Below are positions 293-15,332 of a stretch of DNA of 16,922 nucleotides, one piece after another. The DNA comes from an archaeon. Its GTDB lineage: Archaea > Asgardarchaeota > Heimdallarchaeia > Hodarchaeales > S146-22. The stretch's first letter is position 1, and the number at the start of each line of letters is the position of its first letter. A program made the position numbers and the translations under genes. The stretch is taken from the NCBI GenBank assembly GCA_024276395.1, contig JAJRXH010000099.1, positions 1 to 16,922 of the forward strand, in the 5' to 3' direction. The notes beneath the pieces are model-generated. The model was not told the DNA's origin. It searched no databases and was given only the letters and a program-made list of their open reading frames with translations.

Positions 293-1609
293 TCAACTAA
301 TTTGGAAAGTTTTCCTCAAGCGAGAGATAATTTCATTTAATGTAAGCAATAACTGCTCACCACTAACCATATCTCTCAGGATGTATTTATTTTCCTCAAG
401 TTCTTTCTTCCCAATCAGAATGACCTTCGGGACTTGAAGTTTATTGGCATAATCCAAAGCTTTTCGTGCTTTCCATCTTGATATGTTAAAGACTACAGAG
501 AACCCCTCATTTCGAAGTTGTCGAGTGATATTCATAGCATCATCAATCAAATCTTCGGTGAGGTTAACCACGAACACGTGAGGCTTTGGAGTTACCTCAC
601 TGGGAATTAGCTGACGCTGCTTTAATACCATCATGGCCCGAAGCAATCCACCAGCAGTTCCCGTGGCTGGAATGTCACGTCCACCGTAAAGACCTACCAA
701 GGAATCATAACGCCCTCCGCCGAACAATGCCCCAGCTCGCTCATCCTTCAAGTCATAAGCTTCCCAAACAGGGCCTGTATAATATCCTAGGCCCCTTACG
801 ATGGACAAATCAATGGTCACGAAGTTTTTCATCCCTACCACTTCAAAATAATGGAGCAATTCCCGTAAATCTTTCAGTCCATTCTTTACTTTGTTAACAT
901 CACCGAATCGTTCTTCAATGGCAAGCAAAGCCTCCTCTTTCCCTCTCATCAACGTACCAAGAACCTCTTCACCAGCTTGCCTAGAAAATCCATTCTGTTC
1001 AAAGCCAGATAAGATTTCTTCGCGTGACACCTTCTGTAACTTGTCAATCAATCGTAGCAATTCGATGATATTGTCATCTGTAGCACCCAATCCTTTCAAA
1101 ATACCCTCTGCCACCTGACGATGACCAATTCTTACCTCGAAATCTTCATATCCTAATGAGCGAAAAATGTCAATTCCCACGGCAATTGACTCAAAATCAG
1201 CTAAAACATCCTTTTCACCAAGAATTTCCACGTTCCATTGAAAAAACCATCGCCTTCTTCCATAGGCAGGTTGATCATAACGCCACATGGAAGAGATGGC
1301 ACCTAATCTTATCGGTAATGGCCAGCGAGGATGATTGGCAACCATCCGAGCGATTCCCACGGTAAGGTCAAATCGCAATCCTAGTTCTCTACCAGCCTTG
1401 TCTCTGAAATAGTAGATTTCATCCTTGATGGCAGGGCCAGATTTAGCAGATAATGTCTTAAATTCTTCAACCATCGTAGGTTCAACTAATTGGAAACCAT
1501 AACGACGGAATTCTTTCCTAATTTTAGTCGTCATCCAATCTTGAATGGCCATTTCTTCGGGACCTATATCGTCCATCCCTTTTGGCGGTTTGTATTCTTC
1601 TTTTCCCAT
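293..1609 (-). CDS. hisS: Histidyl-tRNA synthetase (class II aaRS)
   Basis: 438-aa ORF. Motif 2-like 'WRYDQPAYGRRRWFFQWNVEILG' and motif 3 'FGGGRYDSLVGLYGG' are present. A C-terminal anticodon-binding-type domain is present ('VFVVNL...KVILIGKKELEE'), which argues against HisZ. GAGGT (complement of 1618-1622) lies 8 nt upstream of the ATG. The stop is TGA. Confidence 0.93.
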   Translation of the reverse strand: MGKEEYKPPKGMDDIGPEEMAIQDWMTTKIRKEFRRYGFQLVEPTMVEEFKTLSAKSGPAIKDEIYYFRDKAGRELGLRFDLTVGIARMVANHPRWPLPIRLGAISSMWRYDQPAYGRRRWFFQWNVEILGEKDVLADFESIAVGIDIFRSLGYEDFEVRIGHRQVAEGILKGLGATDDNIIELLRLIDKLQKVSREEILSGFEQNGFSRQAGEEVLGTLMRGKEEALLAIEERFGDVNKVKNGLKDLRELLHYFEVVGMKNFVTIDLSIVRGLGYYTGPVWEAYDLKDERAGALFGGGRYDSLVGLYGGRDIPATGTAGGLLRAMMVLKQRQLIPSEVTPKPHVFVVNLTEDLIDDAMNITRQLRNEGFSVVFNISRWKARKALDYANKLQVPKVILIGKKELEENKYILRDMVSGEQLLLTLNEIISRLRKTFQIS

Positions 1610-1643: not shown

Positions 1644-4600
1644 ATGGTAGAGCAATATTTAAATGAGTTGGCGCCATTGTATGATAGGAGAGATACTATG
1701 TCCAACCTCAGAGCAATTCTTGATGAATTAACCGCTAAAGGCATTGATACTGATCAACTAAAAGAAATCTTGGTAAAAAACCACAAGAAATTACAAAAAA
1801 ATTCAGATATCAATGATCTGCAGGTAATGATTTATCGCTTGATGGCACCCGTCTTTGGGGCTGGAGAAGCACGAACCATTGCTGCAAAAATCGTTCCCAT
1901 CCTACCTGAATTATTAAAAAACGAATTGGTAGATGGAGAAAAAAGGGAAGATATAGGGAGACCAGCCTTTTTCACTCTTACCCACCAAGGTGAAACTCTC
2001 ACGGGGTATCTCCCGCGAAGCTTTCATCAAGGCCTTCTAAAGCTTGCATCACAGCCACCAATTACGTATCTCGAACTAAACGAATACTTTTTCAGTATTT
2101 CTGATTCGTCACTCGATTCTCTCGTACGAGATCAGTCTGCAGAAGAAATTTTTCAATGGACGACAAAACGCCTTCTTTCTTGGCCAAAACTGTATGGTGA
2201 GGATGAACATGACATTTATCTCTTCTATTTCTCGGACTTTGAAGATAAACACGTGATGCATTCCAATGACATCGTTTTTCATGCGAGAGAGACTTGGGAT
2301 CGAATTGGAATTAGGATAATTTGGCCAATTGAAGAGAGAAAACTCCGAGATCTTAACGCTACTAGCATCATCCTGTACATGATGAACCTTGCCTTCAAGC
2401 ATTTGGCTGGCATCTTCGAATGGAAGCGACTATTTTCAAAGATAGAAAAAGATGCAATCATAAATGCAAATATTGATGAATTAAATACTTTTTTTATTCA
2501 CTTACTCCAAGGATATCTCAATTATTTCATCAATCCAAGAATACATGATCATTCATTCAGTATCAAACTCGAATCAGTCCACGATTTCAAGCATGAATTA
2601 GGGTTCACTCCCGAACAATTCATCAAAACAAGTGATCCAAGCCTCCAACAATTTGGGTCTAGACTGATGAACTTAATGTTCCATTGGAAATTATTCCGAT
2701 GGATGGGCTTCAGAGACGAGGGTCATGGCAACACATCGAAAGAATCATTTTTTGACTTGTTCATTCTTTTATGCCGTGATATTTTGGGATTTAACATCAG
2801 TTCACCCCTCCAAATCCCATCATTAGCCGAGATCAAGAAACGATGTGAAGAAATTGCCCCAGAAAAACCATTTGAGAAGGCAATCGTTGAGCCAATAGCT
2901 AAAGAGCTCACCTATCTTGTCAAGATTGTTACCCTAAAAGGGGGAATTAACCAAGACCTCACCATGTCTTTCAGAAATGGATATCTTTCAGCTCGTATCG
3001 GCAAAACCTTACATCAAATCTATACCTACTACCTAGAATGGAAAGGAGAAGAAAAAGGGCAAGAAAGTTTTGTATTGTACATTTATCGAGTGGCAGCGGA
3101 AGGGCTTGTATCAAGCAATAACATGGTAATTAAGAAAAGCCTCCAATATCTGATAGACATGGAAGAAGAAGGATTTGGAAGAAACAAGAATAGAACCATC
3201 AAATCGGACATGGTACAAGACCTATTGAAACTCCATAACGTAATCCTCATAAAAAAACTTGACGATGCTGAAAGCACGCAACAATGGATTAAGAACACGG
3301 TCTTGCAAGTATTCTCTTTCGTCCATGGTGCCCGATTGTTCAAGCTCCTGAGAGAAGGGTTCAAAAGATTTGAAGAAAGACCAATAAGAGTCATTTGGAA
3401 TCCTGATGAACAAGAAGAGATGCACTCTGAACTGCAATCAATGCTTTCCCGTGCTCTTGAAACAAAAGAAACTATTTTAAGCATCCAAAACATCATCAAA
3501 AGAGCAATGCAGGAAGGAATTCGGAAGATACCCCCTGACAATGAAATCTTTGACACCATCATCGAAAACTTACCATTGGAAAAAAACCTAACTTTAAAGG
3601 AAAATGTCCACCAATTTGTCCTTGTTCTCACGAACTTGCTTCATAGCCACATCAACCCGCTCTTAGGAAGAAAAACCGAAGAGAAAGAAGAACGTGTCTC
3701 TTTCACTGATGAATTAGACCAAGCAGTGACAACTGAAATATTTCTACAGAGAATTTTCAGAGAAAATCATGAAAATTTCTCAAAAATAGCCAAAAACAAA
3801 TCAACTTGGCTATATCAGCAAGATGATTCCATCATAAAAGAGTTAGAACCACTACTCATTGGAGGAGTAATTTCATTAGTTCTACACAAGAGACCTTTAA
3901 GCAATGACGAATACAAGATACTTTCTTTTGAAGATATCCTACAATTACTGGAAACTGAACTATTACACCTATCTCACACATCAATAATCCAAGAAAAAGA
4001 CGACTCGGAAAAAATAAAACTTTTCAAGACCTACATCATTGATAGCGTGGAATTATGGAGTAACGTGTTTAGAGTATCAGACCTTCTGAGCGTCTTTCTT
4101 CAATCTCAAGACTTCCTGGATGCGTTCTCAATCACGGTTAACAACACTAACAAGGAAAACCTCCTCCAAAAACCAGAAATCAGAAGCTTTCTAGCGCAAC
4201 ATTACATTCGAGGTTGGATTTCAGCATGGTTCAACCATGGGATTGATTTTGCCGAAAATGCAGTTAACACGCCAGATCCACCAGAGGAACTTCTTTGGGA
4301 AATTGTTGATGCGACGCGGCGAGTGCATTTCCCACAATTTCTTCGATGGTTTTTAATTGGAAACACGAACCTTTCCTTGGAACGAATCAACCATCTAATG
4401 GAAAAATATCTTCTTCTCACGGAAACCATCGTACAAGGAGAGTTTTTAAGTCTTTATCCAGAAATCTGTCTAGCATTCTTGGTACTGCACGGTTCTGGTA
4501 CCAGAAACCTGACACATCTTTCATCATTATTACAAATCCCTAATACGGAATGTGACATTCATTTCCTTAAAAGCGGTGAAATACACTCCGTGATGAATCT

Positions 4601-5627
4601 TTTGACAGACTCAGATGCTCCGTTTCCAAAAGATATTCTCAAGAATGTCGCTGCCCTAAGTATACTACATGGACTAGAACTGGAAGCCATTACCTTTCGC
4701 TTGCCATCATCATCCATCTACCTCACGATGAGTTACTTCCCACGAGTAAGCGCATTTACAGATGTTGCTGGGACAACCAGCATCATTCTAACTATGCAGC
4801 GTCCTTTATCCGAACAGATAGCCGATCTCGCTCCGAAAAATGCCGAAGTCATCAGCGGTCTTTATTCGCTATTTACTGACAATCCCATTGATAATCCCAT
4901 TGGTAAACTTGTACTTCTCCAACGGCTGCGATTCACCACGATAGCTGCACTCAAAAACCTTGATTTCATCAAAAAAATGAAAATGCCCAGCGATCTCGAC
5001 ATTCAACTTTCCATTTCTAAAGATGAAACCACGCTATCCCGTGACTATGATGTAATTGGTTTATTTCATCTAAAACTCGGAAAAATCGATCAATCTACCA
5101 GTGAAAGCAAAATTTACGTGAGAAAGATCCAGTTTTACGGAAAAAAATTGAATCAATTCTTGTACATTAATCAATTTTTCCTCGCCTTTCTGCCCTTATC
5201 CACAACAGTGTCTCATTCTCTAGAAACCTCTAAGAGTCTCGGAACGAAAACGTATCTCGCCCGAGGACGTTCATTGTTCCTCACTCCCGTAGCGTCAATA
5301 TTCAGATTCAAGGACGAGAACGACGATAAAAGAAAAATCATCATCCTATACGATTCTCCAACTGAAGATACCATGGATCTTTGCATTCTATGGGAAAGCA
5401 AAATGGTCAAAGAGCCATATAGCGTGAACAAAGCTAGATTCATTCTAGAATCAAATCGAGTGAAGGAAACAGGAGCTTGGAATCTAGAAAATCTTGCATC
5501 AAAAATCTTTTCCTTGCCAGTACGAACACCATACTTCGACGTGACAAAAAAGGACACAACCACGGGGAAAGAAATGCCAGAAACTGACTTGGAAAAGATT
5601 GAAAGCATTTCTCTCGGAGGATTTTGA
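1644..5627 (+). CDS. Large (1327 aa) hypothetical protein with no recognisable domain; predicted soluble and largely helical, with a more beta/Ser-Thr-rich C-terminal ~300 aa
   Basis: This is the longest uninterrupted ORF in the window, and every antisense ORF within it is short. I saw no P-loop, no TM segments and no catalytic signature. An alternative start is ATG 1698 (aa 19), preceded by AGGAG (1686-1690) at 7-nt spacing. The stop TGA (5625-5627) abuts the next gene. Confidence 0.85.
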   Translation: MVEQYLNELAPLYDRRDTMSNLRAILDELTAKGIDTDQLKEILVKNHKKLQKNSDINDLQVMIYRLMAPVFGAGEARTIAAKIVPILPELLKNELVDGEKREDIGRPAFFTLTHQGETLTGYLPRSFHQGLLKLASQPPITYLELNEYFFSISDSSLDSLVRDQSAEEIFQWTTKRLLSWPKLYGEDEHDIYLFYFSDFEDKHVMHSNDIVFHARETWDRIGIRIIWPIEERKLRDLNATSIILYMMNLAFKHLAGIFEWKRLFSKIEKDAIINANIDELNTFFIHLLQGYLNYFINPRIHDHSFSIKLESVHDFKHELGFTPEQFIKTSDPSLQQFGSRLMNLMFHWKLFRWMGFRDEGHGNTSKESFFDLFILLCRDILGFNISSPLQIPSLAEIKKRCEEIAPEKPFEKAIVEPIAKELTYLVKIVTLKGGINQDLTMSFRNGYLSARIGKTLHQIYTYYLEWKGEEKGQESFVLYIYRVAAEGLVSSNNMVIKKSLQYLIDMEEEGFGRNKNRTIKSDMVQDLLKLHNVILIKKLDDAESTQQWIKNTVLQVFSFVHGARLFKLLREGFKRFEERPIRVIWNPDEQEEMHSELQSMLSRALETKETILSIQNIIKRAMQEGIRKIPPDNEIFDTIIENLPLEKNLTLKENVHQFVLVLTNLLHSHINPLLGRKTEEKEERVSFTDELDQAVTTEIFLQRIFRENHENFSKIAKNKSTWLYQQDDSIIKELEPLLIGGVISLVLHKRPLSNDEYKILSFEDILQLLETELLHLSHTSIIQEKDDSEKIKLFKTYIIDSVELWSNVFRVSDLLSVFLQSQDFLDAFSITVNNTNKENLLQKPEIRSFLAQHYIRGWISAWFNHGIDFAENAVNTPDPPEELLWEIVDATRRVHFPQFLRWFLIGNTNLSLERINHLMEKYLLLTETIVQGEFLSLYPEICLAFLVLHGSGTRNLTHLSSLLQIPNTECDIHFLKSGEIHSVMNLLTDSDAPFPKDILKNVAALSILHGLELEAITFRLPSSSIYLTMSYFPRVSAFTDVAGTTSIILTMQRPLSEQIADLAPKNAEVISGLYSLFTDNPIDNPIGKLVLLQRLRFTTIAALKNLDFIKKMKMPSDLDIQLSISKDETTLSRDYDVIGLFHLKLGKIDQSTSESKIYVRKIQFYGKKLNQFLYINQFFLAFLPLSTTVSHSLETSKSLGTKTYLARGRSLFLTPVASIFRFKDENDDKRKIIILYDSPTEDTMDLCILWESKMVKEPYSVNKARFILESNRVKETGAWNLENLASKIFSLPVRTPYFDVTKKDTTTGKEMPETDLEKIESISLGGF
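1654..1664. promoter_or_regulatory. AT-rich near-palindromic TATA-like element between divergent hisS and the 1327-aa gene (possible bidirectional promoter core)
   Basis: 'aatatttaaat' reads as TATA-like on both strands. It lies ~50 nt upstream of the hisS ATG (1609) and ~39 nt upstream of the in-frame ATG at 1698. A second TATA-like 'atattaat' (1608-1615) could instead serve the ATG at 1644, so the assignment is ambiguous. Confidence 0.35.
5616..5620 (+). promoter_or_regulatory. Shine-Dalgarno (GGAGG) for the GTPase gene, embedded in the last codons of the upstream ORF
   Basis: The sequence reads 'ctcGGAGGattttgaGTG', so GGAGG ends 7 nt before GTG 5628. The same motif class precedes other starts in the window. 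Confidence 0.6.
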
Positions 5628-6953
5628 GTGAAAATAGATCTCATTCTCATTGGAGATGGCATGTCTGGGAAAACAACTCTCATCAAAAAACATACCGAGT
5701 TTGTTTTTCAGAAGTTCGCCTTAAAATTCGAGCAATATCTCATTGAGCGTGGCCTGCCGTCATTTTCACAATGGAAAAATGAATTCCAAGACATTAATCG
5801 CGCTCTAAAACTAATAGAAAGAGATCTTAGTGCAAGTTTCATGGCAAATGACCCAGAATATCCACAAAAAAAATACTTTGAATGGGCAACACGAAATGCA
5901 AACGTGATAAAGTTCGAGGACTGGCTCAATCATTTAGGAGTTGATCTTGGTAACCACTTATCCACAGATACGTCAGTTGCCACACTCGGAATGGATACCA
6001 TCCAGATGAAATATCCCATCAAGGATGACCTCATCCACATCAGCGGATATGATCTAGGGGGACAAAACATCTATGATCAAATTAGAGACGTGATTACTGG
6101 TTTGGCTAAGCCAAAATCTTTCCTTGTTGTAGTATTCGACTCATCTCGTTTCCTTTCTTGTGAAAATAGCATAAGACAATTGCTTAGTAGCTTGAAAAAG
6201 TTTGAAATGAAAGAATATACCCCAACAATCCTTGCTGTCCTCAACAAAATTGACTTGCAGGATTATATGAGCAAGGAAAAATGGCAAGAATTTACCGCCA
6301 AGCACATTGCAACCACGTTACAAGAACTAAGGAAAAAAGATATCAAATACCAAGTTCCTAATCTATTATTTAAGGAAGAAATACGAGAGATCATCCTACC
6401 AAGATCAGATTTAGTTGGTTTTGAACACCTAGAGGCGTTAATATACCACAGTCTCAAGAAAAATGAGGCCACCTTTGGAAAAAATCCATTTACTGAAATA
6501 AATACAAAAGCCATTGCCAGGGAAATAGCTGCCCAACTCTTACTCTACCAAAACCCCAATCCAAGCTATTATGAAGGACTAAGAAAATTACTGTTTGAAC
6601 AAAGGCCATTAGCCGTCCAATACATCGAAGGTATTTCCCTCACTACTTTAGAGCCAGGAAGGCACGAAAAAGAAGCATTAAGAAGGTTAAGAAAGAAGTT
6701 TGAAGGCTTCGAACTTGACCTCACTTCCATTAATGCAAACGTGGTCAAAGCCGTCATTCTTAATTCCATCAACACGAAAGACCTCGAGATGACACTAAAG
6801 GAACAAGGTTATCCCTTATTCAAGACTAGTGCCCTTGAAGGGACAGGAATTCCAGAATTATTCGATTATATCACGAAATTATCGAGAGAAAAACAAAAAG
6901 ATTTGAATTCAGAAAAAAGAAGAATTCCAAGGAGACTGGGAAAAATTACGTGA
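5628..6953 (+). CDS. Atypical small-GTPase-superfamily protein (441 aa) with two large insertions; G3 is Arf/Galpha/Rag-like (DxGGQ)
   Basis: G1 is 'GDGMSGKT' (aa 9-16). The switch I candidate is 'ATLGMDT' (aa 118-124). G3 is 'DLGGQ' (aa 142-146, nt 6051-6065). G4 is 'NKID' (aa 206-209, nt 6243-6254). G5 is 'TSALEG' (aa 400-405). There are ~95 aa between the G1 helix and switch I, and ~185 aa between G4 and G5. A GTG start is required because any later ATG would delete the P-loop. Confidence 0.85.
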   Translation: MKIDLILIGDGMSGKTTLIKKHTEFVFQKFALKFEQYLIERGLPSFSQWKNEFQDINRALKLIERDLSASFMANDPEYPQKKYFEWATRNANVIKFEDWLNHLGVDLGNHLSTDTSVATLGMDTIQMKYPIKDDLIHISGYDLGGQNIYDQIRDVITGLAKPKSFLVVVFDSSRFLSCENSIRQLLSSLKKFEMKEYTPTILAVLNKIDLQDYMSKEKWQEFTAKHIATTLQELRKKDIKYQVPNLLFKEEIREIILPRSDLVGFEHLEALIYHSLKKNEATFGKNPFTEINTKAIAREIAAQLLLYQNPNPSYYEGLRKLLFEQRPLAVQYIEGISLTTLEPGRHEKEALRRLRKKFEGFELDLTSINANVVKAVILNSINTKDLEMTLKEQGYPLFKTSALEGTGIPELFDYITKLSREKQKDLNSEKRRIPRRLGKIT

Positions 6954-6980: not shown

Positions 6981-6991
6981 TTTTATTTTTT
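6981..6991 (+). terminator. Oligo-T tract downstream of the GTPase gene (archaeal-type terminator candidate)
   Basis: 'ttttatttttt' lies 28 nt after the TGA at 6953. It overlaps the 3' end of the convergent 94-aa gene. Confidence 0.4.
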
Positions 6992-7267
6992 CAAACGAGA
7001 AGTAATGCCTTTTACCTTGTCCTTAAGAGCGGCACCAGCTTGAGAGATCTTCATTTTCGCCTGGATCGTTTCTGATCCAAGGAGCTTCGTAATGCCCGCG
7101 CAAATCTCACAAACACACTGATTTCTGAAAGTTTCTTGCACTTCCATATCCTTAAATACACCAGAGAAGGCTTCACGCAAGTCTTGATCAGTAAGAAATA
7201 TCGCTTCTTCGCTTACTTTTCTTCGGCAGATCCAACATTCAGCCTTACCAGAACCAAATAATGGCAA
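6983..7267 (-). CDS. Small hypothetical protein (94 aa) with two CxxC pairs (possible zinc-binding)
   Basis: It carries 'CWIC' (aa 11-14) and 'CVCEIC' (aa 51-56) and has a Lys-rich C-terminus. The start is a non-ATG TTG (complement of 7265-7267), preceded by a strong GGAGGTG (complement of 7277-7283) at 9-nt spacing. Confidence 0.55.
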   Translation of the reverse strand: MPLFGSGKAECWICRRKVSEEAIFLTDQDLREAFSGVFKDMEVQETFRNQCVCEICAGITKLLGSETIQAKMKISQAGAALKDKVKGITSRLKK

Positions 7268-8088: not shown

Positions 8089-8391
8089 TCACAAATTGAT
8101 GGGACGATTTGAACTAATCAAGACAAAATCTCTTTTGAGAACTTCATTCACGTGATCCCGTGGAATCCCCTTGTGTAATAATTGTGCAACGAAAACCGCC
8201 TTGCAATTCTCACAATAAGTGTTTCTAGTCTTTTTATTGAAATATAAACGATATTCAAGTATGGTCTTACCACAGAACGTGCATTTTTGATCAAAATCAA
8301 ACAATAAATTCCGAAGAGTAGCACAGTCATCACAATATCCAGCACGAGAAACGGGACGACCGCATCTCAAGCATAATTGAATACGTTTCAT
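8089..8391 (-). CDS. Small zinc-ribbon protein (100 aa, four CxxC motifs)
   Basis: It carries 'CLRC', 'CDDC', 'CTFC' and 'CENC', which suggests two Zn-ribbon knuckle pairs. GAGGT (complement of 8399-8403) lies 7 nt upstream of the ATG. An AT-rich 'tttttaaac' box lies ~50 nt upstream. Confidence 0.6.
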   Translation of the reverse strand: MKRIQLCLRCGRPVSRAGYCDDCATLRNLLFDFDQKCTFCGKTILEYRLYFNKKTRNTYCENCKAVFVAQLLHKGIPRDHVNEVLKRDFVLISSNRPINL

Positions 8392-10915: not shown

Positions 10916-12928
10916 ATGAAAAGCAACGAAATCGAATCCAAGAATGGTGTGGAAATCATCATCTTGGCATGTTCCATCATATTCTTCGCCGCTGCTGTTT
11001 ATGGAGTCCAAAGAAGCATTTTGAGCATTCAGACACAACAAGATGTCAGTTTTACTAAATGGGTTCTAAGCGGACTTTTTCTTTCCGCAGCTGCCTCATT
11101 GATTGGATTTGGCTTAACAAAAGCCGCAATGGGAACCATCTCGGGAATACTTGTCGACAGGTCAGGATTCTTTAAAGTTGCCTCATTAGGTGCGACCTTG
11201 TTCGTCATCAGTCCGACACTAGCCTCACTATGGACGAATCCACTCATCACGACCTTTAGTAACCTTCTTTTAGGAATGGGTGAAGGAATATTATACACTG
11301 CGGTTTCCATTCAGTTAGGACAAATGGTAAGCTCACGGAAGCGAGCTACGATGATGAGCATCATGGAGCTTTCAATTTTTTTAGGCTATTCAATCGGAGC
11401 ATTAACCCCTGGGATTAAAGTCATCCATGATACTCTTAATCCATTCCTCATTGCCAGCATCTTTGGAGGACTAGCCGCAATTCTCACTTTCAGCATCAAG
11501 TATTTCCCTTTTACTCACCAAAAAAAATCGAAAAAAAACCGTATTAAGAGTAGATTTAGTCATGATTTGAGCTTAAGCAAAAATTTAAGTCCAAGATTAG
11601 CCAAGTTATTACCAAGGCTCCCTGTACAACCTGAAGAACTAATCAAGAAAAAATATAGCGGGTTAAAGCCCTTGCACAACCGCTTACTAGTCACGATATC
11701 CCTAAATGGACACGTGTCCAAATTTGCAGATGCTGTAATAGTCTTATTCTTACCAATATTGCTAGTAAATTTCCGAGATTTTTCATTAGCACAAGCTGCA
11801 CTAGTCTCTTCCGCATTCACGTTTGCATGGGCATTAGCAATGCCATTCTCTGGAAGACTGTCAGATACTTTTGGAAGAAAGCCAGTCACCTTGGTAGGGT
11901 TAGTTGGTCAGGCTATTGCAGTCGGCCAAATAATTAGTGGCACGTCGTTTTTTTCTACTCTGAGCGCGGTGGCTTTAATGGGAATCTTTAGTGGTCTATA
12001 TTATCCAGCAAATCCCTCAGCAGTGTTAGACATGACACCGAGACCCGTTCAAGGAAAATTAATGGGAATTTATAGAGCTAGTAAAGATTTAGGATATGTA
12101 ACTGCACCACCCTTGAGCGCAATCCTAGTCTACTTGTCTTTAGTTGGCTTAAAGGATGTCAACCTTGCTATCAAGATGCCTTTCCTAATTGTCCAGATAG
12201 CATTAATAATAGCTGCAACAAACACGTTCTTCTTTGGCATCGAAACTAGACCGGCTTGGTGGCAGTATCAAACCTCTCTTGAACACGCACTAACGTGTCT
12301 TGCTGCTGTAGATGCTGCTGTGGATGGCATGAGAATCTACCTACGAGATTCAGACCATCCTTTTTTCACGAAAAATCCTAAAAATGAAGAAATTGAAAAA
12401 GAAGCAAGAGAAAAAGCCATTGACGCTAAGCATTATGAAGTAATTGCCGATGAATTATTAGATCAAATTGCAATGAGAACGTATCAAACCATTCAAACGG
12501 CAGCTGATGCGCCCGAATTCATAAAAATAGCACGTCGCTTTGACAGAGTAGCTGGACTGAGTGTCGGAGCGACCATGAGACTCAGAAAGATTGAATTCGA
12601 CTTGATCCCAGAATTTCTACGTGTCACGTTGATTCGACAAGCCAAGGGATTACGAGAACTAATGAACCATGGCATCCAAGGACTAGCCTTGTTGGAACAC
12701 GGAATCGACCAAATAGAATATATCTACAAGAAGACAAGAAAGAAAGAGAAACATCTTGATGACATCTACCTTCAAGCATCACGTTACCTATATTCAAAGG
12801 CGGATTATCTCTCATTCGGCACGTGGATGTCCATTCATAATGTCATCGAGATTCTTGAACAGGCTGCAGATACAATTGAAGATGCTGTCGAAGGCATTCG
12901 CATGCTCTCTCTCAAGTATGTCACTTGA
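10916..12928 (+). CDS. MFS transporter fused to a C-terminal cytoplasmic DUF47/PhoU-like (PhoU_div) domain
   Basis: There are about 12 hydrophobic helices over aa 1-445. MFS motif A occurs in both halves ('GILVDRSGFFKV' at aa 77-88 and 'GRLSDTFGRKPV' at aa 313-324). Aa ~446-670 (nt ~12251-12925) is soluble and helical with a DUF47-like pattern ('HYEVIADELLDQIA', 'IARRFDRVA', 'KKEKHLDDIY', 'VIEILEQAADTIEDAVEGIRMLSLKY'). Confidence 0.82.
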   Translation: MKSNEIESKNGVEIIILACSIIFFAAAVYGVQRSILSIQTQQDVSFTKWVLSGLFLSAAASLIGFGLTKAAMGTISGILVDRSGFFKVASLGATLFVISPTLASLWTNPLITTFSNLLLGMGEGILYTAVSIQLGQMVSSRKRATMMSIMELSIFLGYSIGALTPGIKVIHDTLNPFLIASIFGGLAAILTFSIKYFPFTHQKKSKKNRIKSRFSHDLSLSKNLSPRLAKLLPRLPVQPEELIKKKYSGLKPLHNRLLVTISLNGHVSKFADAVIVLFLPILLVNFRDFSLAQAALVSSAFTFAWALAMPFSGRLSDTFGRKPVTLVGLVGQAIAVGQIISGTSFFSTLSAVALMGIFSGLYYPANPSAVLDMTPRPVQGKLMGIYRASKDLGYVTAPPLSAILVYLSLVGLKDVNLAIKMPFLIVQIALIIAATNTFFFGIETRPAWWQYQTSLEHALTCLAAVDAAVDGMRIYLRDSDHPFFTKNPKNEEIEKEAREKAIDAKHYEVIADELLDQIAMRTYQTIQTAADAPEFIKIARRFDRVAGLSVGATMRLRKIEFDLIPEFLRVTLIRQAKGLRELMNHGIQGLALLEHGIDQIEYIYKKTRKKEKHLDDIYLQASRYLYSKADYLSFGTWMSIHNVIEILEQAADTIEDAVEGIRMLSLKYVT

Positions 12929-12971: not shown

Positions 12972-13913
12972 CTATTCAGGCATCTCTATTCTTATTGTCA
13001 TGGCCTCAAAAGATTTCCACCTAATAGATCTTGGTCTCAATAGGGGAAGAAGACTAATGACGGAAAGGGTAGCATCATCATACTTCTGATGTCGTAGCAA
13101 ATAATGATCGAGAATCTTAATGATTCCTTTTTTCCAGTTCAAGATCATCCTATCTTCACCACCCTCGAACGAAGAGCCATAATTGGCATCAAGACTATAG
13201 GCACGCAATAACCGTGCTAAAGAATCAATCAAAGTACGAGCATTCTCACGAACGGCCGCACCATCCGTCCCTAGCACGGCAATGATACCATTTCTTGGAA
13301 TCCTAAGTTTTAGATATTCTGGTTCTCCCACCACGCCACTTTCATCAACGAATGAACGGATCACATCATCTGAAGACTGCTTAAAAAAGGGAAAGGTTGC
13401 TTGTTTAATTCGTAATTCTACAATCTCACCGTCATACTCGATAACTGGATAAATTAACAGAAGATCAGAATCCCCAAGATTATAGGCATGGAGATACTGA
13501 GTTCCTTCCAAAACCAGACATAAAAAAGTAGTTGAAGACTCAATTACACCATTAACAGCAATTAAACTAGTTAAGTGTTCTTTTATTAGTGGAGATACCT
13601 TTTCACTAATAAATTGTGTCAAGAATTCATCGACTCTCGAAAAGATGTCAGAAGTTGAGGAATATCTCCTCTGAAATTCATCAGAGACCATATTTACAAT
13701 GATGGAAGAAGCTATATCACCCCGTGTTGCTGAAATACCATCAGCAATGAAAATTCCCGGAATATTGTGGTGTTTTAATAGAGACGCACTATCTTCTCCC
13801 TTTACTAAATTATTAATTTTATAATGAGCATGGCCAAAATACCTAGTTTTCGAATGAGTAACAATCCAGGAAAATTCATCTTCAATCGGTTTTGAATTGG
13901 GATTTAAGGGCAT
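12972..13913 (-). CDS. PP2C-like (PPM-family) protein phosphatase, divergent paralog B (313 aa)
   Basis: The ordered PPM-like motifs are 'KGEDSA' (ED), 'FIADGIS' (DG), 'SSTTFLCLV' (GTT-like), 'NLGDSDLLL' (GDS), 'LGTDGAA' (xDG) and 'YDDATLSVISL' (DNxT-like). It shares all of these with the 254-aa ORF at 14568-15332. Confidence 0.65.
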   Translation of the reverse strand: MPLNPNSKPIEDEFSWIVTHSKTRYFGHAHYKINNLVKGEDSASLLKHHNIPGIFIADGISATRGDIASSIIVNMVSDEFQRRYSSTSDIFSRVDEFLTQFISEKVSPLIKEHLTSLIAVNGVIESSTTFLCLVLEGTQYLHAYNLGDSDLLLIYPVIEYDGEIVELRIKQATFPFFKQSSDDVIRSFVDESGVVGEPEYLKLRIPRNGIIAVLGTDGAAVRENARTLIDSLARLLRAYSLDANYGSSFEGGEDRMILNWKKGIIKILDHYLLRHQKYDDATLSVISLLPLLRPRSIRWKSFEAMTIRIEMPE

Positions 13914-13930
13914 CTAAATGCCTTCCATGG

Positions 13931-13940
13931 ATATATTTTT
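13931..13940 (-). promoter_or_regulatory. TATA box for PP2C-like paralog B (near-leaderless)
   Basis: On the minus strand 'aaaaatatat' is centred ~22-25 nt upstream of the ATG (13913). No SD is present. Confidence 0.5.
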
Positions 13941-13945
13941 CTTCT

Positions 13946-13987
13946 CTTCATCCCGTACGAACTAATCTTCATCCCGTACGAACTAAT
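13946..13987. repeat. Perfect 21-nt tandem duplication (2 units), each containing the palindrome CGTACG, directly upstream of the TATA box
   Basis: 'cttcatcccgtacgaactaat' at 13946-13966 is identical to 13967-13987. The CGTACG cores sit at 13954-13959 and 13975-13980. The repeat lies in the 106-nt spacer between the Rab-like stop and the PP2C-B start. Confidence 0.9.
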
Positions 13988-14019
13988 AACAAAACTTTAG
14001 AAGATAGAAATGATTAGGA

Positions 14020-14571
14020 CTAATCAAGGATAGACCTAACAAAGTAATCAAAGGCCTCGTTTACACCTTCACCTGTTTTAGCAGAAGTCTCAAAGAAATA
14101 TACGATGTTAAATTCCTTCCTCAATTTTTCAGCTAATTGCTCACCTTCTTCCTTAGAAACAGTTGTTGTTCTCACGGTATCTCTCAAATCGATCTTATTA
14201 CCAATCAGCATCAACGGTATTTTCTTGTTATCATTATTCTGCAACAACTCTTTCGTCCATAAAGGGATGTTTTCGTAGGAATGAGGATTGGTGACATCAT
14301 ATACCAAAATGGCACCCGATGAACCATTGTAGTACAAGGAACGGACTGTAGCGAATTGCTGCTGTCCAGCCAGATCCCATATCTGTAAGCGAACTTCTCG
14401 ATCATCTATCAAGACGCTTTTCACAGAGAAATCTGCACCAATCGTGACCATATATTTCGTATTAAAACCTTCTCCTAGGTATTTCTTCCGTAATGACGTC
14501 TTACCGACTGCCATATCACCCAATAACGGAATTTTCAAAATTCGGCGGAGCATCTTTCTCATCCTCATCAT
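14020..14571 (-). CDS. Rab-like small GTPase (Ras superfamily), eukaryote-like, without a C-terminal prenylation cysteine
   Basis: G1 is 'GDMAVGKT' (nt 14497-14520). Switch I is 'YMVTIGADF'. G3 is 'LQIWDLAGQQQF', compared with eukaryotic Rab 'LQIWDTAGQERF'. G4 is 'GNKIDL' and G5 is 'ETSAKTGEGVNEAF'. The protein ends '...VRSILD' with no Cys. Its ATG overlaps the upstream TGA (ATGA at 14568-14571). Confidence 0.92.
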   Translation of the reverse strand: MMRMRKMLRRILKIPLLGDMAVGKTSLRKKYLGEGFNTKYMVTIGADFSVKSVLIDDREVRLQIWDLAGQQQFATVRSLYYNGSSGAILVYDVTNPHSYENIPLWTKELLQNNDNKKIPLMLIGNKIDLRDTVRTTTVSKEEGEQLAEKLRKEFNIVYFFETSAKTGEGVNEAFDYFVRSILD

Positions 14572-15332
14572 TTGGAATCAGAATCTTTCATGTAGTCTGG
14601 TGCAGGTACATACATCACACCAATCGTTGCATCATCCTTCACTTCCAACTTGCTCATAAAATGTTGTAACCCATCCTCTAAGGAAAACTTCTCCATTCGG
14701 ACACCATGCAAGTGCAACCATAATGACTTGTATATATCTGGATTATTGAAAGAGATACCATCAGTGGCCATGATGAGAAAACTACCCTCTGGAAAAGATT
14801 GACGCACGGCAAGGAAGGTAGGTAGTGAGGAAACTCCCTTTGATGACACGTATCCTTCTAGCTTGCCCCCACGAGAATATGGAATTAAATAACTTGCTGA
14901 TGCTTGCAAATCACCATTAAAATGAAGTATGGTGCCATCACCAAGATAGTATACATAAATGTAATTTCCATCAGTTGCTCCTATCATGACTGTTGTTGCG
15001 GCATCCTCCGATTTCACACCCTCTTCAAGCAAAGCAAACCGCATATTCTGTGGTGCAGCGTACATGAGATCATCTAACACGCTCTCCAGTTCAGCTGGAT
15101 TACCATCATGCGTGATCGCATAAGAAAAAGCTTCATTCATGATCTGAACCATTATACGAGATGCCACTGAGCCAAGTGTCTGGGATACCCCATCACAAAT
15201 GATAATTCCTCGAAGATGACCATCTACCGTTTCAAAGGTACCAACTGCATCGTGACCATGAAAGTCATTTCGCGAATAAGTTGCGATCTTCACTTGCTCG
15301 AGGACGGCAGTATTAGGTTTCATCCAATTCAC
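14568..15332 (-). CDS. PP2C-like (PPM-family) protein phosphatase, divergent paralog A (254 aa by ORF track, more likely 251 aa starting at ATG 15323)
   Basis: The motifs are 'SRNDFHGHD', 'IICDGVS' (DG), 'AATTVMIGA' (GTT-like), 'YLGDGT' (GDS-like), 'IMATDGIS' (xDG) and 'KDDATIGVMYV' (DNxT-like). The ORF-track start is GTG (15332), only 1 nt after GAGGT (complement of 15334-15338). ATG 15323 has a 10-nt spacing and is preferred. Confidence 0.7.
   Translation of the reverse strand: MNWMKPNTAVLEQVKIATYSRNDFHGHDAVGTFETVDGHLRGIIICDGVSQTLGSVASRIMVQIMNEAFSYAITHDGNPAELESVLDDLMYAAPQNMRFALLEEGVKSEDAATTVMIGATDGNYIYVYYLGDGTILHFNGDLQASASYLIPYSRGGKLEGYVSSKGVSSLPTFLAVRQSFPEGSFLIMATDGISFNNPDIYKSLWLHLHGVRMEKFSLEDGLQHFMSKLEVKDDATIGVMYVPAPDYMKDSDSK

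Follow-up and report, generated by a model that had tools for sequence, protein, structure and literature searches.

The question raised by this locus is whether a GTPase gene of an Asgard archaeon, whose nucleotide-binding motifs (G1 to G5) are pushed far apart by additional sequence, encodes a relative of the alpha subunit of heterotrimeric G proteins (Galpha) or a GTPase of some other kind. The gene occupies positions 5628-6953 of a 16,922-nucleotide stretch of DNA from a member of the Heimdallarchaeia (contig JAJRXH010000099.1 of assembly GCA_024276395.1), which was analysed over its full length and is called the window below. An original prediction, made from the letters of the window, had taken the protein for a possible member of an Arf/Galpha-like lineage with two inserted domains. 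Our results suggest that it is best explained as a twice-interrupted switch GTPase of a Heimdallarchaeia-centred family, most probably the group known as Rup3, which is co-translated with an orphan protein of ~1,300 amino acids (aa) and most likely works in a complex with that partner. We consider this account as a whole somewhat likelier to be true than false.

Whether the motifs have been assigned correctly can be judged from the relatives of the protein. Among 5.8 billion proteins a word-indexed search retrieved 33 homologues, 342-467 aa long and 27-63% identical to the window GTPase, with a coverage that mostly exceeds 90%. The features of the gene are given here one per line, in nucleotides of the window with the residues of the protein in brackets; motif invariance was scored on the 33-sequence family alignment.

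5628-6953, plus strand: GTPase gene of 441 aa, GTG start and stop codon included, taken from the open reading frame (ORF) list and its translation; its homologues are full length and its matches to Pfam Ras, Arf and Roc lie above the cut-offs.
5652-5675, plus strand: G1 or P-loop, GDGMSGKT (aa 9-16); G14, K15 and T16 are invariant, and G9, D10, G11, M12 and S13 are conserved to 90% or more.
5709-5972, plus strand: insert 1 (aa ~28-115), a helical extension of alpha1 plus three helices at the position of the Galpha helical domain, delimited from the secondary structure of an AlphaFold2 (AF2) model.
5982-5984, plus strand: G2, the switch I threonine T119, invariant and paired with the switch I Thr of Rab in hidden Markov model (HMM) alignments.
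6051-6065, plus strand: G3, DLGGQ (aa 142-146), with the catalytic Gln146; D142, G145 and Q146 are invariant.
6243-6254, plus strand: G4, NKID (aa 206-209); N206, K207 and D209 are invariant.
6258-6713, plus strand: insert 2 (aa ~211-362, ~150 aa), an alpha/beta and helical domain between G4 and alpha4, delimited from the family alignment and the AF2 model.
6723-6836, plus strand: the canonical alpha4-beta6 stretch with G5, SAL at 401-403 (aa ~366-403); T400 never varies, N401, A402 and L403 reach a conservation of 90% or more, TNAL pairs with TSAK of Rab21, and beta6 lies at 397-399.
6909-6950, plus strand: C-terminal basic tail after alpha5, RRIPRRLGKIT, from the family alignment.

Because the key residues are invariant across the 33 homologues, the assignment of the five motifs is not due to chance, and they stand in the canonical order and at the positions first proposed for them. 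In searches of Pfam with the whole protein the Ras family reaches 39.6 bits, where the cut-off is 21.6, and the placement with Ras, Arf and Roc derives from aa 115-228 only. We therefore also built a profile of the core with both inserts deleted, from 16 diverse members, in which ~180 aa remain. Positions 2-168 of this masked-core profile align with residues 7-166 of Rab21, that is, from beta1 to alpha5, with TNAL opposite TSAK at G5. As the masked core can be aligned over its whole length with canonical small GTPases, the two inserts are genuine and do not vanish through a G2 or G5 located elsewhere, which had been named as one way in which the proposal could fail. The AF2 model of the GTPase, computed on the family alignment, has a predicted local distance difference test score (pLDDT) of 85.4 and a predicted template modelling score (pTM) of 0.84. 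Its core elements (beta1 2-9, alpha1 15-40, beta2 122-131, beta3 134-143, beta5 200-206, beta6 397-399 and alpha5 408-432) follow the order of a small GTPase, and its extra elements are helices at 46-71, 80-91 and 96-102 and an alpha/beta and helical region from 208 to ~362. It is thus confirmed that ORF 5628-6953 encodes a Ras superfamily GTPase interrupted by two insertions. To judge from the strict conservation of the P-loop, the switch I Thr, the catalytic Gln and the guanine-specific NKxD, the enzyme is predicted to be catalytically complete.

The two insertions differ in size and conservation. In the window GTPase 104 residues separate K15 from T119, and the corresponding spacing in Ras is 19 residues, so that insert 1 measures ~85 aa; the helical insert behind the G1 helix was correctly foreseen, at a somewhat larger size of ~95 aa. 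The extra residues are present in all 33 homologues, with a length of 42-87 aa and two to four helices in the form of a hairpin or bundle, and only an F..W..G motif near the end of the insert is conserved. The pLDDT drops to ~50 near aa 60-80. The family alignment, the AF2 model and the masked-core alignment agree that insert 1 lies at the same topological point as the helical domain of Galpha, as had been proposed.

Insert 2 lies between G4 and alpha4, the position of the Rho insert, and here too the first reading of the sequence was right as to the site. Its size had been put at ~185 aa, and it is smaller, ~150 aa, because the last ~30 aa of that stretch (~366-399, 'SINANVVKAVILNS...GYPLFKTSAL') are the canonical alpha4-beta6. 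The Rho insert is a helix of ~13 residues, and it shares with insert 2 the insertion point, from the G4 loop and beta5 to alpha4, whereas the window GTPase carries a conserved domain of ~150 residues there. Twelve positions of insert 2 are invariant (P244, F265, E269, N292, R298, E299, R326, P327, L328, A329, Q331 and R355). Modelled alone together with alpha4 (aa 210-396) it reaches a pLDDT of 87 and a pTM of 0.84, and in the models it has its own small beta-sheet and about seven helices. A Foldseek search of the PDB with the stand-alone model found no fold match (best E 0.25, template modelling (TM) score at most 0.20); a profile of the insert found nothing significant among PDB sequences (best E 0.16) and nothing in Pfam. 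On these models insert 2 is a confidently predicted domain of novel fold.

When 1.84 billion representative proteins were scanned exhaustively with HMMER, insert 2 turned up in only 14 clusters, always at aa ~180-410 of a protein of 400-460 aa or a fragment, and all inside the GTPase family. As it was never found alone or in another protein context, insert 2 is a family-specific domain, and the idea of a mobile or stand-alone domain was rejected on the same scan. We also rejected, as probably due to chance, a resemblance (E 0.16) of the invariant RPLAxQ (window 6600-6620, aa ~325-331) and its preceding helix to the 'RPTAV' helix of eIF2B-delta and ribose-1,5-bisphosphate isomerase, for which the fold search gave no support.

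What lineage the core belongs to is the next part of the question. Among the 16 masked cores, Pfam Roc and Ras match all 16, Arf 9, and Gtr1_RagA and G-alpha 3 each. The masked core of the window GTPase itself matches Ras at 1.2e-10, Roc at 5e-10 and Arf at 2.7e-8, and G-alpha over the P-loop only (aa 3-33). In a profile search of the PDB the best 60 of 216 matches are Rab28, Rab21, Rab6, RhoA, Rab1, a Thorarchaeota Rab, Ran and similar proteins, and these best 60 of 216 include no Arf, Arl, Sar or Galpha. We further scored the masked-core profile against a panel made of Asgard ArfL, MglA and RagGtr sequences (Vargova et al. supplement) and of human sequences. The scores in bits were 26.4 for Rab1A, 26.0 for a Ras-like GTPase encoded in the window itself, 23.6 for RhoA, 23.5 for Ran, 17.4 for Arf1, 15.6 for the Asgard RagGtr, 15.2 for MglA1, 13.0 for ArfL, 11.9 for HRAS, 10.0 for Gai1 (P-loop only) and 8.2 for Sar1. 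As all of these scores are low, the family is a deep, separate branch; if anything its core may lean towards Rab and Ran, whose P-loop form GDGxSGKT it has.

The membership of an Arf/Galpha-like lineage is thus not supported, as the masked core ranks Rab, Rho and Ran above Arf, Rag and Galpha. The argument for it had been the DxGGQ form of G3, regarded as a mark of the Arf, Galpha and Rag lineages, and this form is not diagnostic of them because Rab28 has DIGGQ; for the same two reasons we rejected an affinity to Arf or Rag inferred from DxGGQ. The protein begins one residue ahead of beta1, so that there is no N-terminal amphipathic helix as in Arf, and Arf scores below Ras and Roc. Gtr1_RagA scores 15.9 bits with the whole protein against a cut-off of 22, and the AF2 model has no C-terminal domain after alpha5 of the kind of the Rag roadblock. 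Membership of the ROCO proteins was rejected as well: the core does resemble the Roc profile, yet a search for a COR domain found none, and the extra sequence sits inside the G domain. With Rab, Ran and Rho (PF00071, especially Rab28) the window GTPase shares the best profile matches to its masked core, the motifs G1-G5 including GDGxSGKT and NKIDL, and, in the case of Rab28, DIGGQ. Unlike them it has two domain-sized insertions and no C-terminal prenylation cysteine, and scores of ~25-42 bits indicate a deep separate branch and no Rab.

The gene directly upstream provides the clue to what such a GTPase may act on. It encodes an orphan protein, here called BIG.

1644-5627, plus strand: BIG, orphan gene of 1327 aa, directly upstream of the GTPase gene.
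5616-5630, plus strand: coupling junction, read from the sequence, with GGAGGA at 5616-5621, the TGA stop of BIG at 5625-5627 and the GTG start of the GTPase at 5628-5630.

The GTG thus abuts the TGA of BIG, with GGAGGA six bases ahead of it. The BIG gene is divergent from a histidyl-tRNA synthetase (HisRS) gene (293-1609, minus strand), 34 nucleotides away, and the copy of BIG in public databases (P0035) has 1309 aa, which would put the start 18 codons further downstream than 1644. BIG has no match in Pfam (searched with the whole protein, with its thirds and with seven homologues), NCBIfam, PADLOC or, by profile, among PDB sequences, and two word-indexed homologue searches returned only BIG itself and one close relative. 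BIG is conserved all the same: a 1302-aa protein in the complete Heimdallarchaeota genome CP070695 has 22% identity to it over ~1100 aa (BLASTP E 1e-39).

Pairing of the two genes is not peculiar to the window. In the window and in loci L001, L002, L004, L005, L006, L007 and L011, a GTPase paralogue is directly preceded by a gene of ~1300 aa with the same orientation, and wherever sequence is available an HMM of BIG, made from six copies, matches along its whole length. In all seven distinct loci examined the stop of BIG and the start of the GTPase abut or overlap (TGA|GTG, TAATG, TAG|ATG, TAAcacATG etc.). A neighbour-joining tree of the family has two deep clades, and the pairing occurs in both of them and down to a protein identity of 21-25%. 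A stop/start coupling kept across both deep clades is hard to explain otherwise than by a functional link between BIG and the GTPase.

In the Hodarchaeales there is a second paralogue subfamily, which has no BIG beside it, lies five to seven genes away and is convergent with a family-B DNA polymerase gene. The gene order there (L004 8678-20417; L017/L007; L014; L018; L008) is an unknown gene of 376-411 aa (minus strand), GTPase-B (plus), the family-B DNA polymerase, a DUF8156 gene and a Rad51-like gene (all minus), and then BIG, GTPase-A and a TrmB-like gene (all plus). The polymerase of L014 and L018 contains an intein and a LAGLIDADG domain, and in the relative L001 the polymerase gene lies ~4 kb upstream of the BIG gene. 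With two paralogues near one BIG gene, a heterodimeric pair of GTPases is a possibility. Minus-strand ORFs of ~1280 aa beside some paralogues were considered as a second partner family and rejected, as they are intein-containing family-B DNA polymerases.

We infer from the coupling that the GTPase and BIG would form a stoichiometric and stable complex. The GTP or GDP state of the GTPase may then control BIG, or BIG may control the GTPase as a dedicated exchange factor, GTPase-activating protein or effector scaffold. Insert 2 would be a family-specific docking or regulatory surface in such a complex, and the basic tail at the C-terminus may direct the complex to a membrane or contact the partner. 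Most relatives have a conserved basic KRxIKRF at the extreme C-terminus, where the window GTPase has RRIPRRLGKIT instead. At the other end of the protein, a conserved GFxPxxIxL precedes beta1 in Hodarchaeales members and is missing from the clade of the window.

The distribution of the family connects it to a group that has probably been named already. All named homologues are from Asgard archaea, mostly labelled Hodarchaeales, Heimdallarchaeota or unclassified ('Promethearchaeota'), with a few labels of Thorarchaeota or Hermodarchaeota. When one genome of each GTDB species was scanned, 15 loci came up, all of them from Hodarchaeales, Heimdallarchaeota or unclassified Asgard archaea, with 2-3 paralogues per genome. 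Rup3 has been described as a group that is prominent across the Heimdallarchaeia and has no eukaryotic relatives, that is recognised by unusual insertions within the GTPase domain, and that is separate from the RasL, ArfR, ArfL, RagGtr and MglA groups; a figure legend places sequence expansions between G1 and G2 and between G2 and G3 (Vargova et al., bioRxiv 10.1101/2024.02.28.582541). Since the taxonomy, the G1-G2 insert and the isolated position all fit, we think it quite likely that the family of the window GTPase is Rup3, a match made by that published description. What is said there of Rup3 also agrees with a core that resembles Ras, Roc and Arf weakly and to about the same degree. The original prediction had named an already described prokaryotic family with these inserts as a finding that would refute it, and Rup3 is probably such a family. 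We therefore take the window GTPase for a divergent member of a probably already named, uncharacterised family.

Several observations weigh against the account given so far. Paralogues P0004 and P0028 and the subfamily adjacent to the polymerase gene have no adjacent BIG gene. Members P0014/P0050/P0051, P0016 and P0020 come from metagenome-assembled genomes labelled Hermodarchaeota or Thorarchaeota, so that the restriction to Heimdallarchaeia may not be absolute; either the family is not strictly confined to that class or these genomes are mislabelled. The legend for Rup3 names a G2-G3 expansion, and the window GTPase has none: T119 and D142 are 23 residues apart, as in Ras, and the Hodarchaeales members have 4-6 additional residues in the beta2-beta3 hairpin. 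The alignment behind the legend may have split insert 1 around another Thr. Lastly, an insert between G4 and G5 goes unmentioned in the preprint's description of Rup3.

Compared point by point, the window family and Rup3, as the preprint's account of the group presents it, are alike in being a Heimdallarchaeia-centred Asgard group of the Ras superfamily with a G1-G2 insertion and no eukaryotic relatives. They are unlike in that this account contains neither the ~150-aa domain between G4 and alpha4, nor its status as a fold orphan, nor a coupled partner gene of ~1300 aa, and in that the clade of the window is only ~30% identical to the Hodarchaeales members and lacks a G2-G3 expansion. The fold-orphan insert 2 and the coupled giant partner thus appear to go beyond what that description of Rup3 offers. 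No other paper in the literature searched mentions Rup3 or an Asgard Galpha-like protein.

The rival that survives best is a self-contained GTPase with a lid, in which both inserts would cover the nucleotide and contribute catalytic or regulatory residues in cis (an arginine finger from R298, R326 or R355, for instance), and BIG would be functionally unrelated or only loosely linked. The loops from which the inserts arise border the nucleotide site, one between alpha1 and switch I and the other at NKxD, insert 2 has three invariant arginines, and the pTM of the whole protein suggests one compact body. The paralogues without an adjacent BIG gene would also be expected if the GTPase worked on its own. 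Such a reading does not easily account for a coupling with BIG that is kept in seven loci, in both deep clades and at the low identities given above, and we regard it as unlikely. An independent, convergent lidded GTPase, whose novel-fold 150-aa domain docks the giant orphan partner in a two-protein machine that only the archaea closest to eukaryotes possess, seems to us doubtful, though more probable than the origin of Galpha in Heimdallarchaeia that is considered further below.

Could BIG and the GTPase form an anti-viral defence module, or one associated with mobile elements, and not a cell-biological switch? Two-gene modules in which a GTPase is paired with a large orphan protein occur commonly in the defence islands of prokaryotes, and in the Hodarchaeales the locus neighbours the intein-bearing family-B polymerase and the Rad51-like gene. 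However, neither BIG nor the GTPase matches any PADLOC model, and the distribution of the family is vertical, within a single class of archaea. That the locus is a mobile or defence island is further argued against by the housekeeping character of the neighbours in the window (HisRS, phosphoesterase, SPFH, major facilitator superfamily (MFS) transporter and sugar kinase), by a guanine-plus-cytosine content that is flat over the locus at 0.37-0.44, and by synteny between relatives at ~60% identity. We consider a defence function very unlikely.

There remains the reading with which the question began. It makes the family a member of the Arf/Galpha/Rag lineage, or a relative or forerunner of heterotrimeric Galpha among the archaea, with an insert 1 that shares its ancestry with the helical domain and acts as a clamp on the nucleotide. 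The likeness to Galpha (PF00503) consists of a helical insertion between alpha1 and switch I, DxGGQ as G3, NKxD, a weak Pfam G-alpha match (0.0037) and the top rank of Gs-alpha and Golf in Foldseek, which make up the first five PDB matches with E values of 2e-5 to 1e-4 and alignments of 340-480 columns. Those matches nevertheless have TM scores of 0.26-0.37 and a root-mean-square deviation of 17-20 Å, and they are followed by Rab, Ran, Rac and MglA at E 1e-4 to 1e-3. The comparison of predicted structures that had been proposed as a check therefore bears out a shared topology and no superposition; we read the Gs-alpha match, on the model, as probably due to a G domain whose alpha1 is followed by helices, and not to homology.

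The sequence evidence points the same way. The Pfam G-alpha match of 16.9 bits is far from the cut-off of 48.8, and with the masked core it shrinks to the P-loop; the core favours Rab, Rho and Ran over Arf and, by far, over Gai1 and Sar1. The helical domain of Galpha has ~120 aa and six helices, whereas insert 1 is short, poorly conserved and variable in length. The Galpha switch I arginine (RxxT) had gone unseen in the window GTPase, correctly so for the whole family: the consensus at this place is SLDTETIG, the window GTPase has TSVATLG, no arginine is conserved before the Thr, and only P0009 has an Arg at -3. The window GTPase also lacks the TCAT form of G5, has the P-loop of the Rab/Ran type and carries an extra 150-aa domain that is absent from Galpha. 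DIGGQ occurs in Rab28 as well, and there is no WD40/Gbeta-like or RGS-like gene within the window. Galpha homology was therefore rejected, on the P-loop-only Pfam match and TM scores of at most 0.37, and is kept solely as shared topology. A Galpha or Arf/Galpha/Rag origin is most improbable, and equally so is its bolder form, in which insert 1 is a surviving archaeal counterpart of the helical domain and lidded Galpha-type GTPases with a large partner arose in Heimdallarchaeia and not in eukaryotes.

Several other genes of the window are of interest in their own right. The Ras-like GTPase used in the panel is a canonical Ras/Rab-like protein of 183 aa (14020-14571, minus strand; Pfam Ras 2.9e-50) that is flanked on both sides by genes for PP2C_2-like phosphatases (12972-13913 and 14568-15332, minus strand), the upstream one of which overlaps it by 4 nucleotides. 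The region 12972-15332 looks like a GTPase-phosphatase operon. A 670-aa protein (10916-12928, plus strand) is an MFS transporter, with two MFS_1 stretches, fused to a C-terminal PhoU_div/DUF47 domain, an unusual fusion of transporter and regulator. Downstream of the GTPase gene a 94-aa protein without a family match (6983-7267, minus strand) is found in the same position in L001 and L002, and a 100-aa zinc-ribbon protein (DZR_2, 8e-5) is encoded at 8089-8391, minus strand.

Among known archaea the Heimdallarchaeia stand closest to the eukaryotes, and ideas on the origin of membrane trafficking and signalling centre on their expanded repertoire of small GTPases. Within that repertoire the family described here is a prominent lineage-specific branch that has apparently not been passed on to eukaryotes and has so far been noted only for "unusual insertions". 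A tempting link to the origin of heterotrimeric G proteins is removed as unsupported, and the family is no forerunner of the Galpha subunits of the animal type. In its place, the fold-orphan insert 2 and the locked partner of ~1,300 aa define a two-protein system that is experimentally tractable, and offer a concrete candidate for the target of these extra GTPases.

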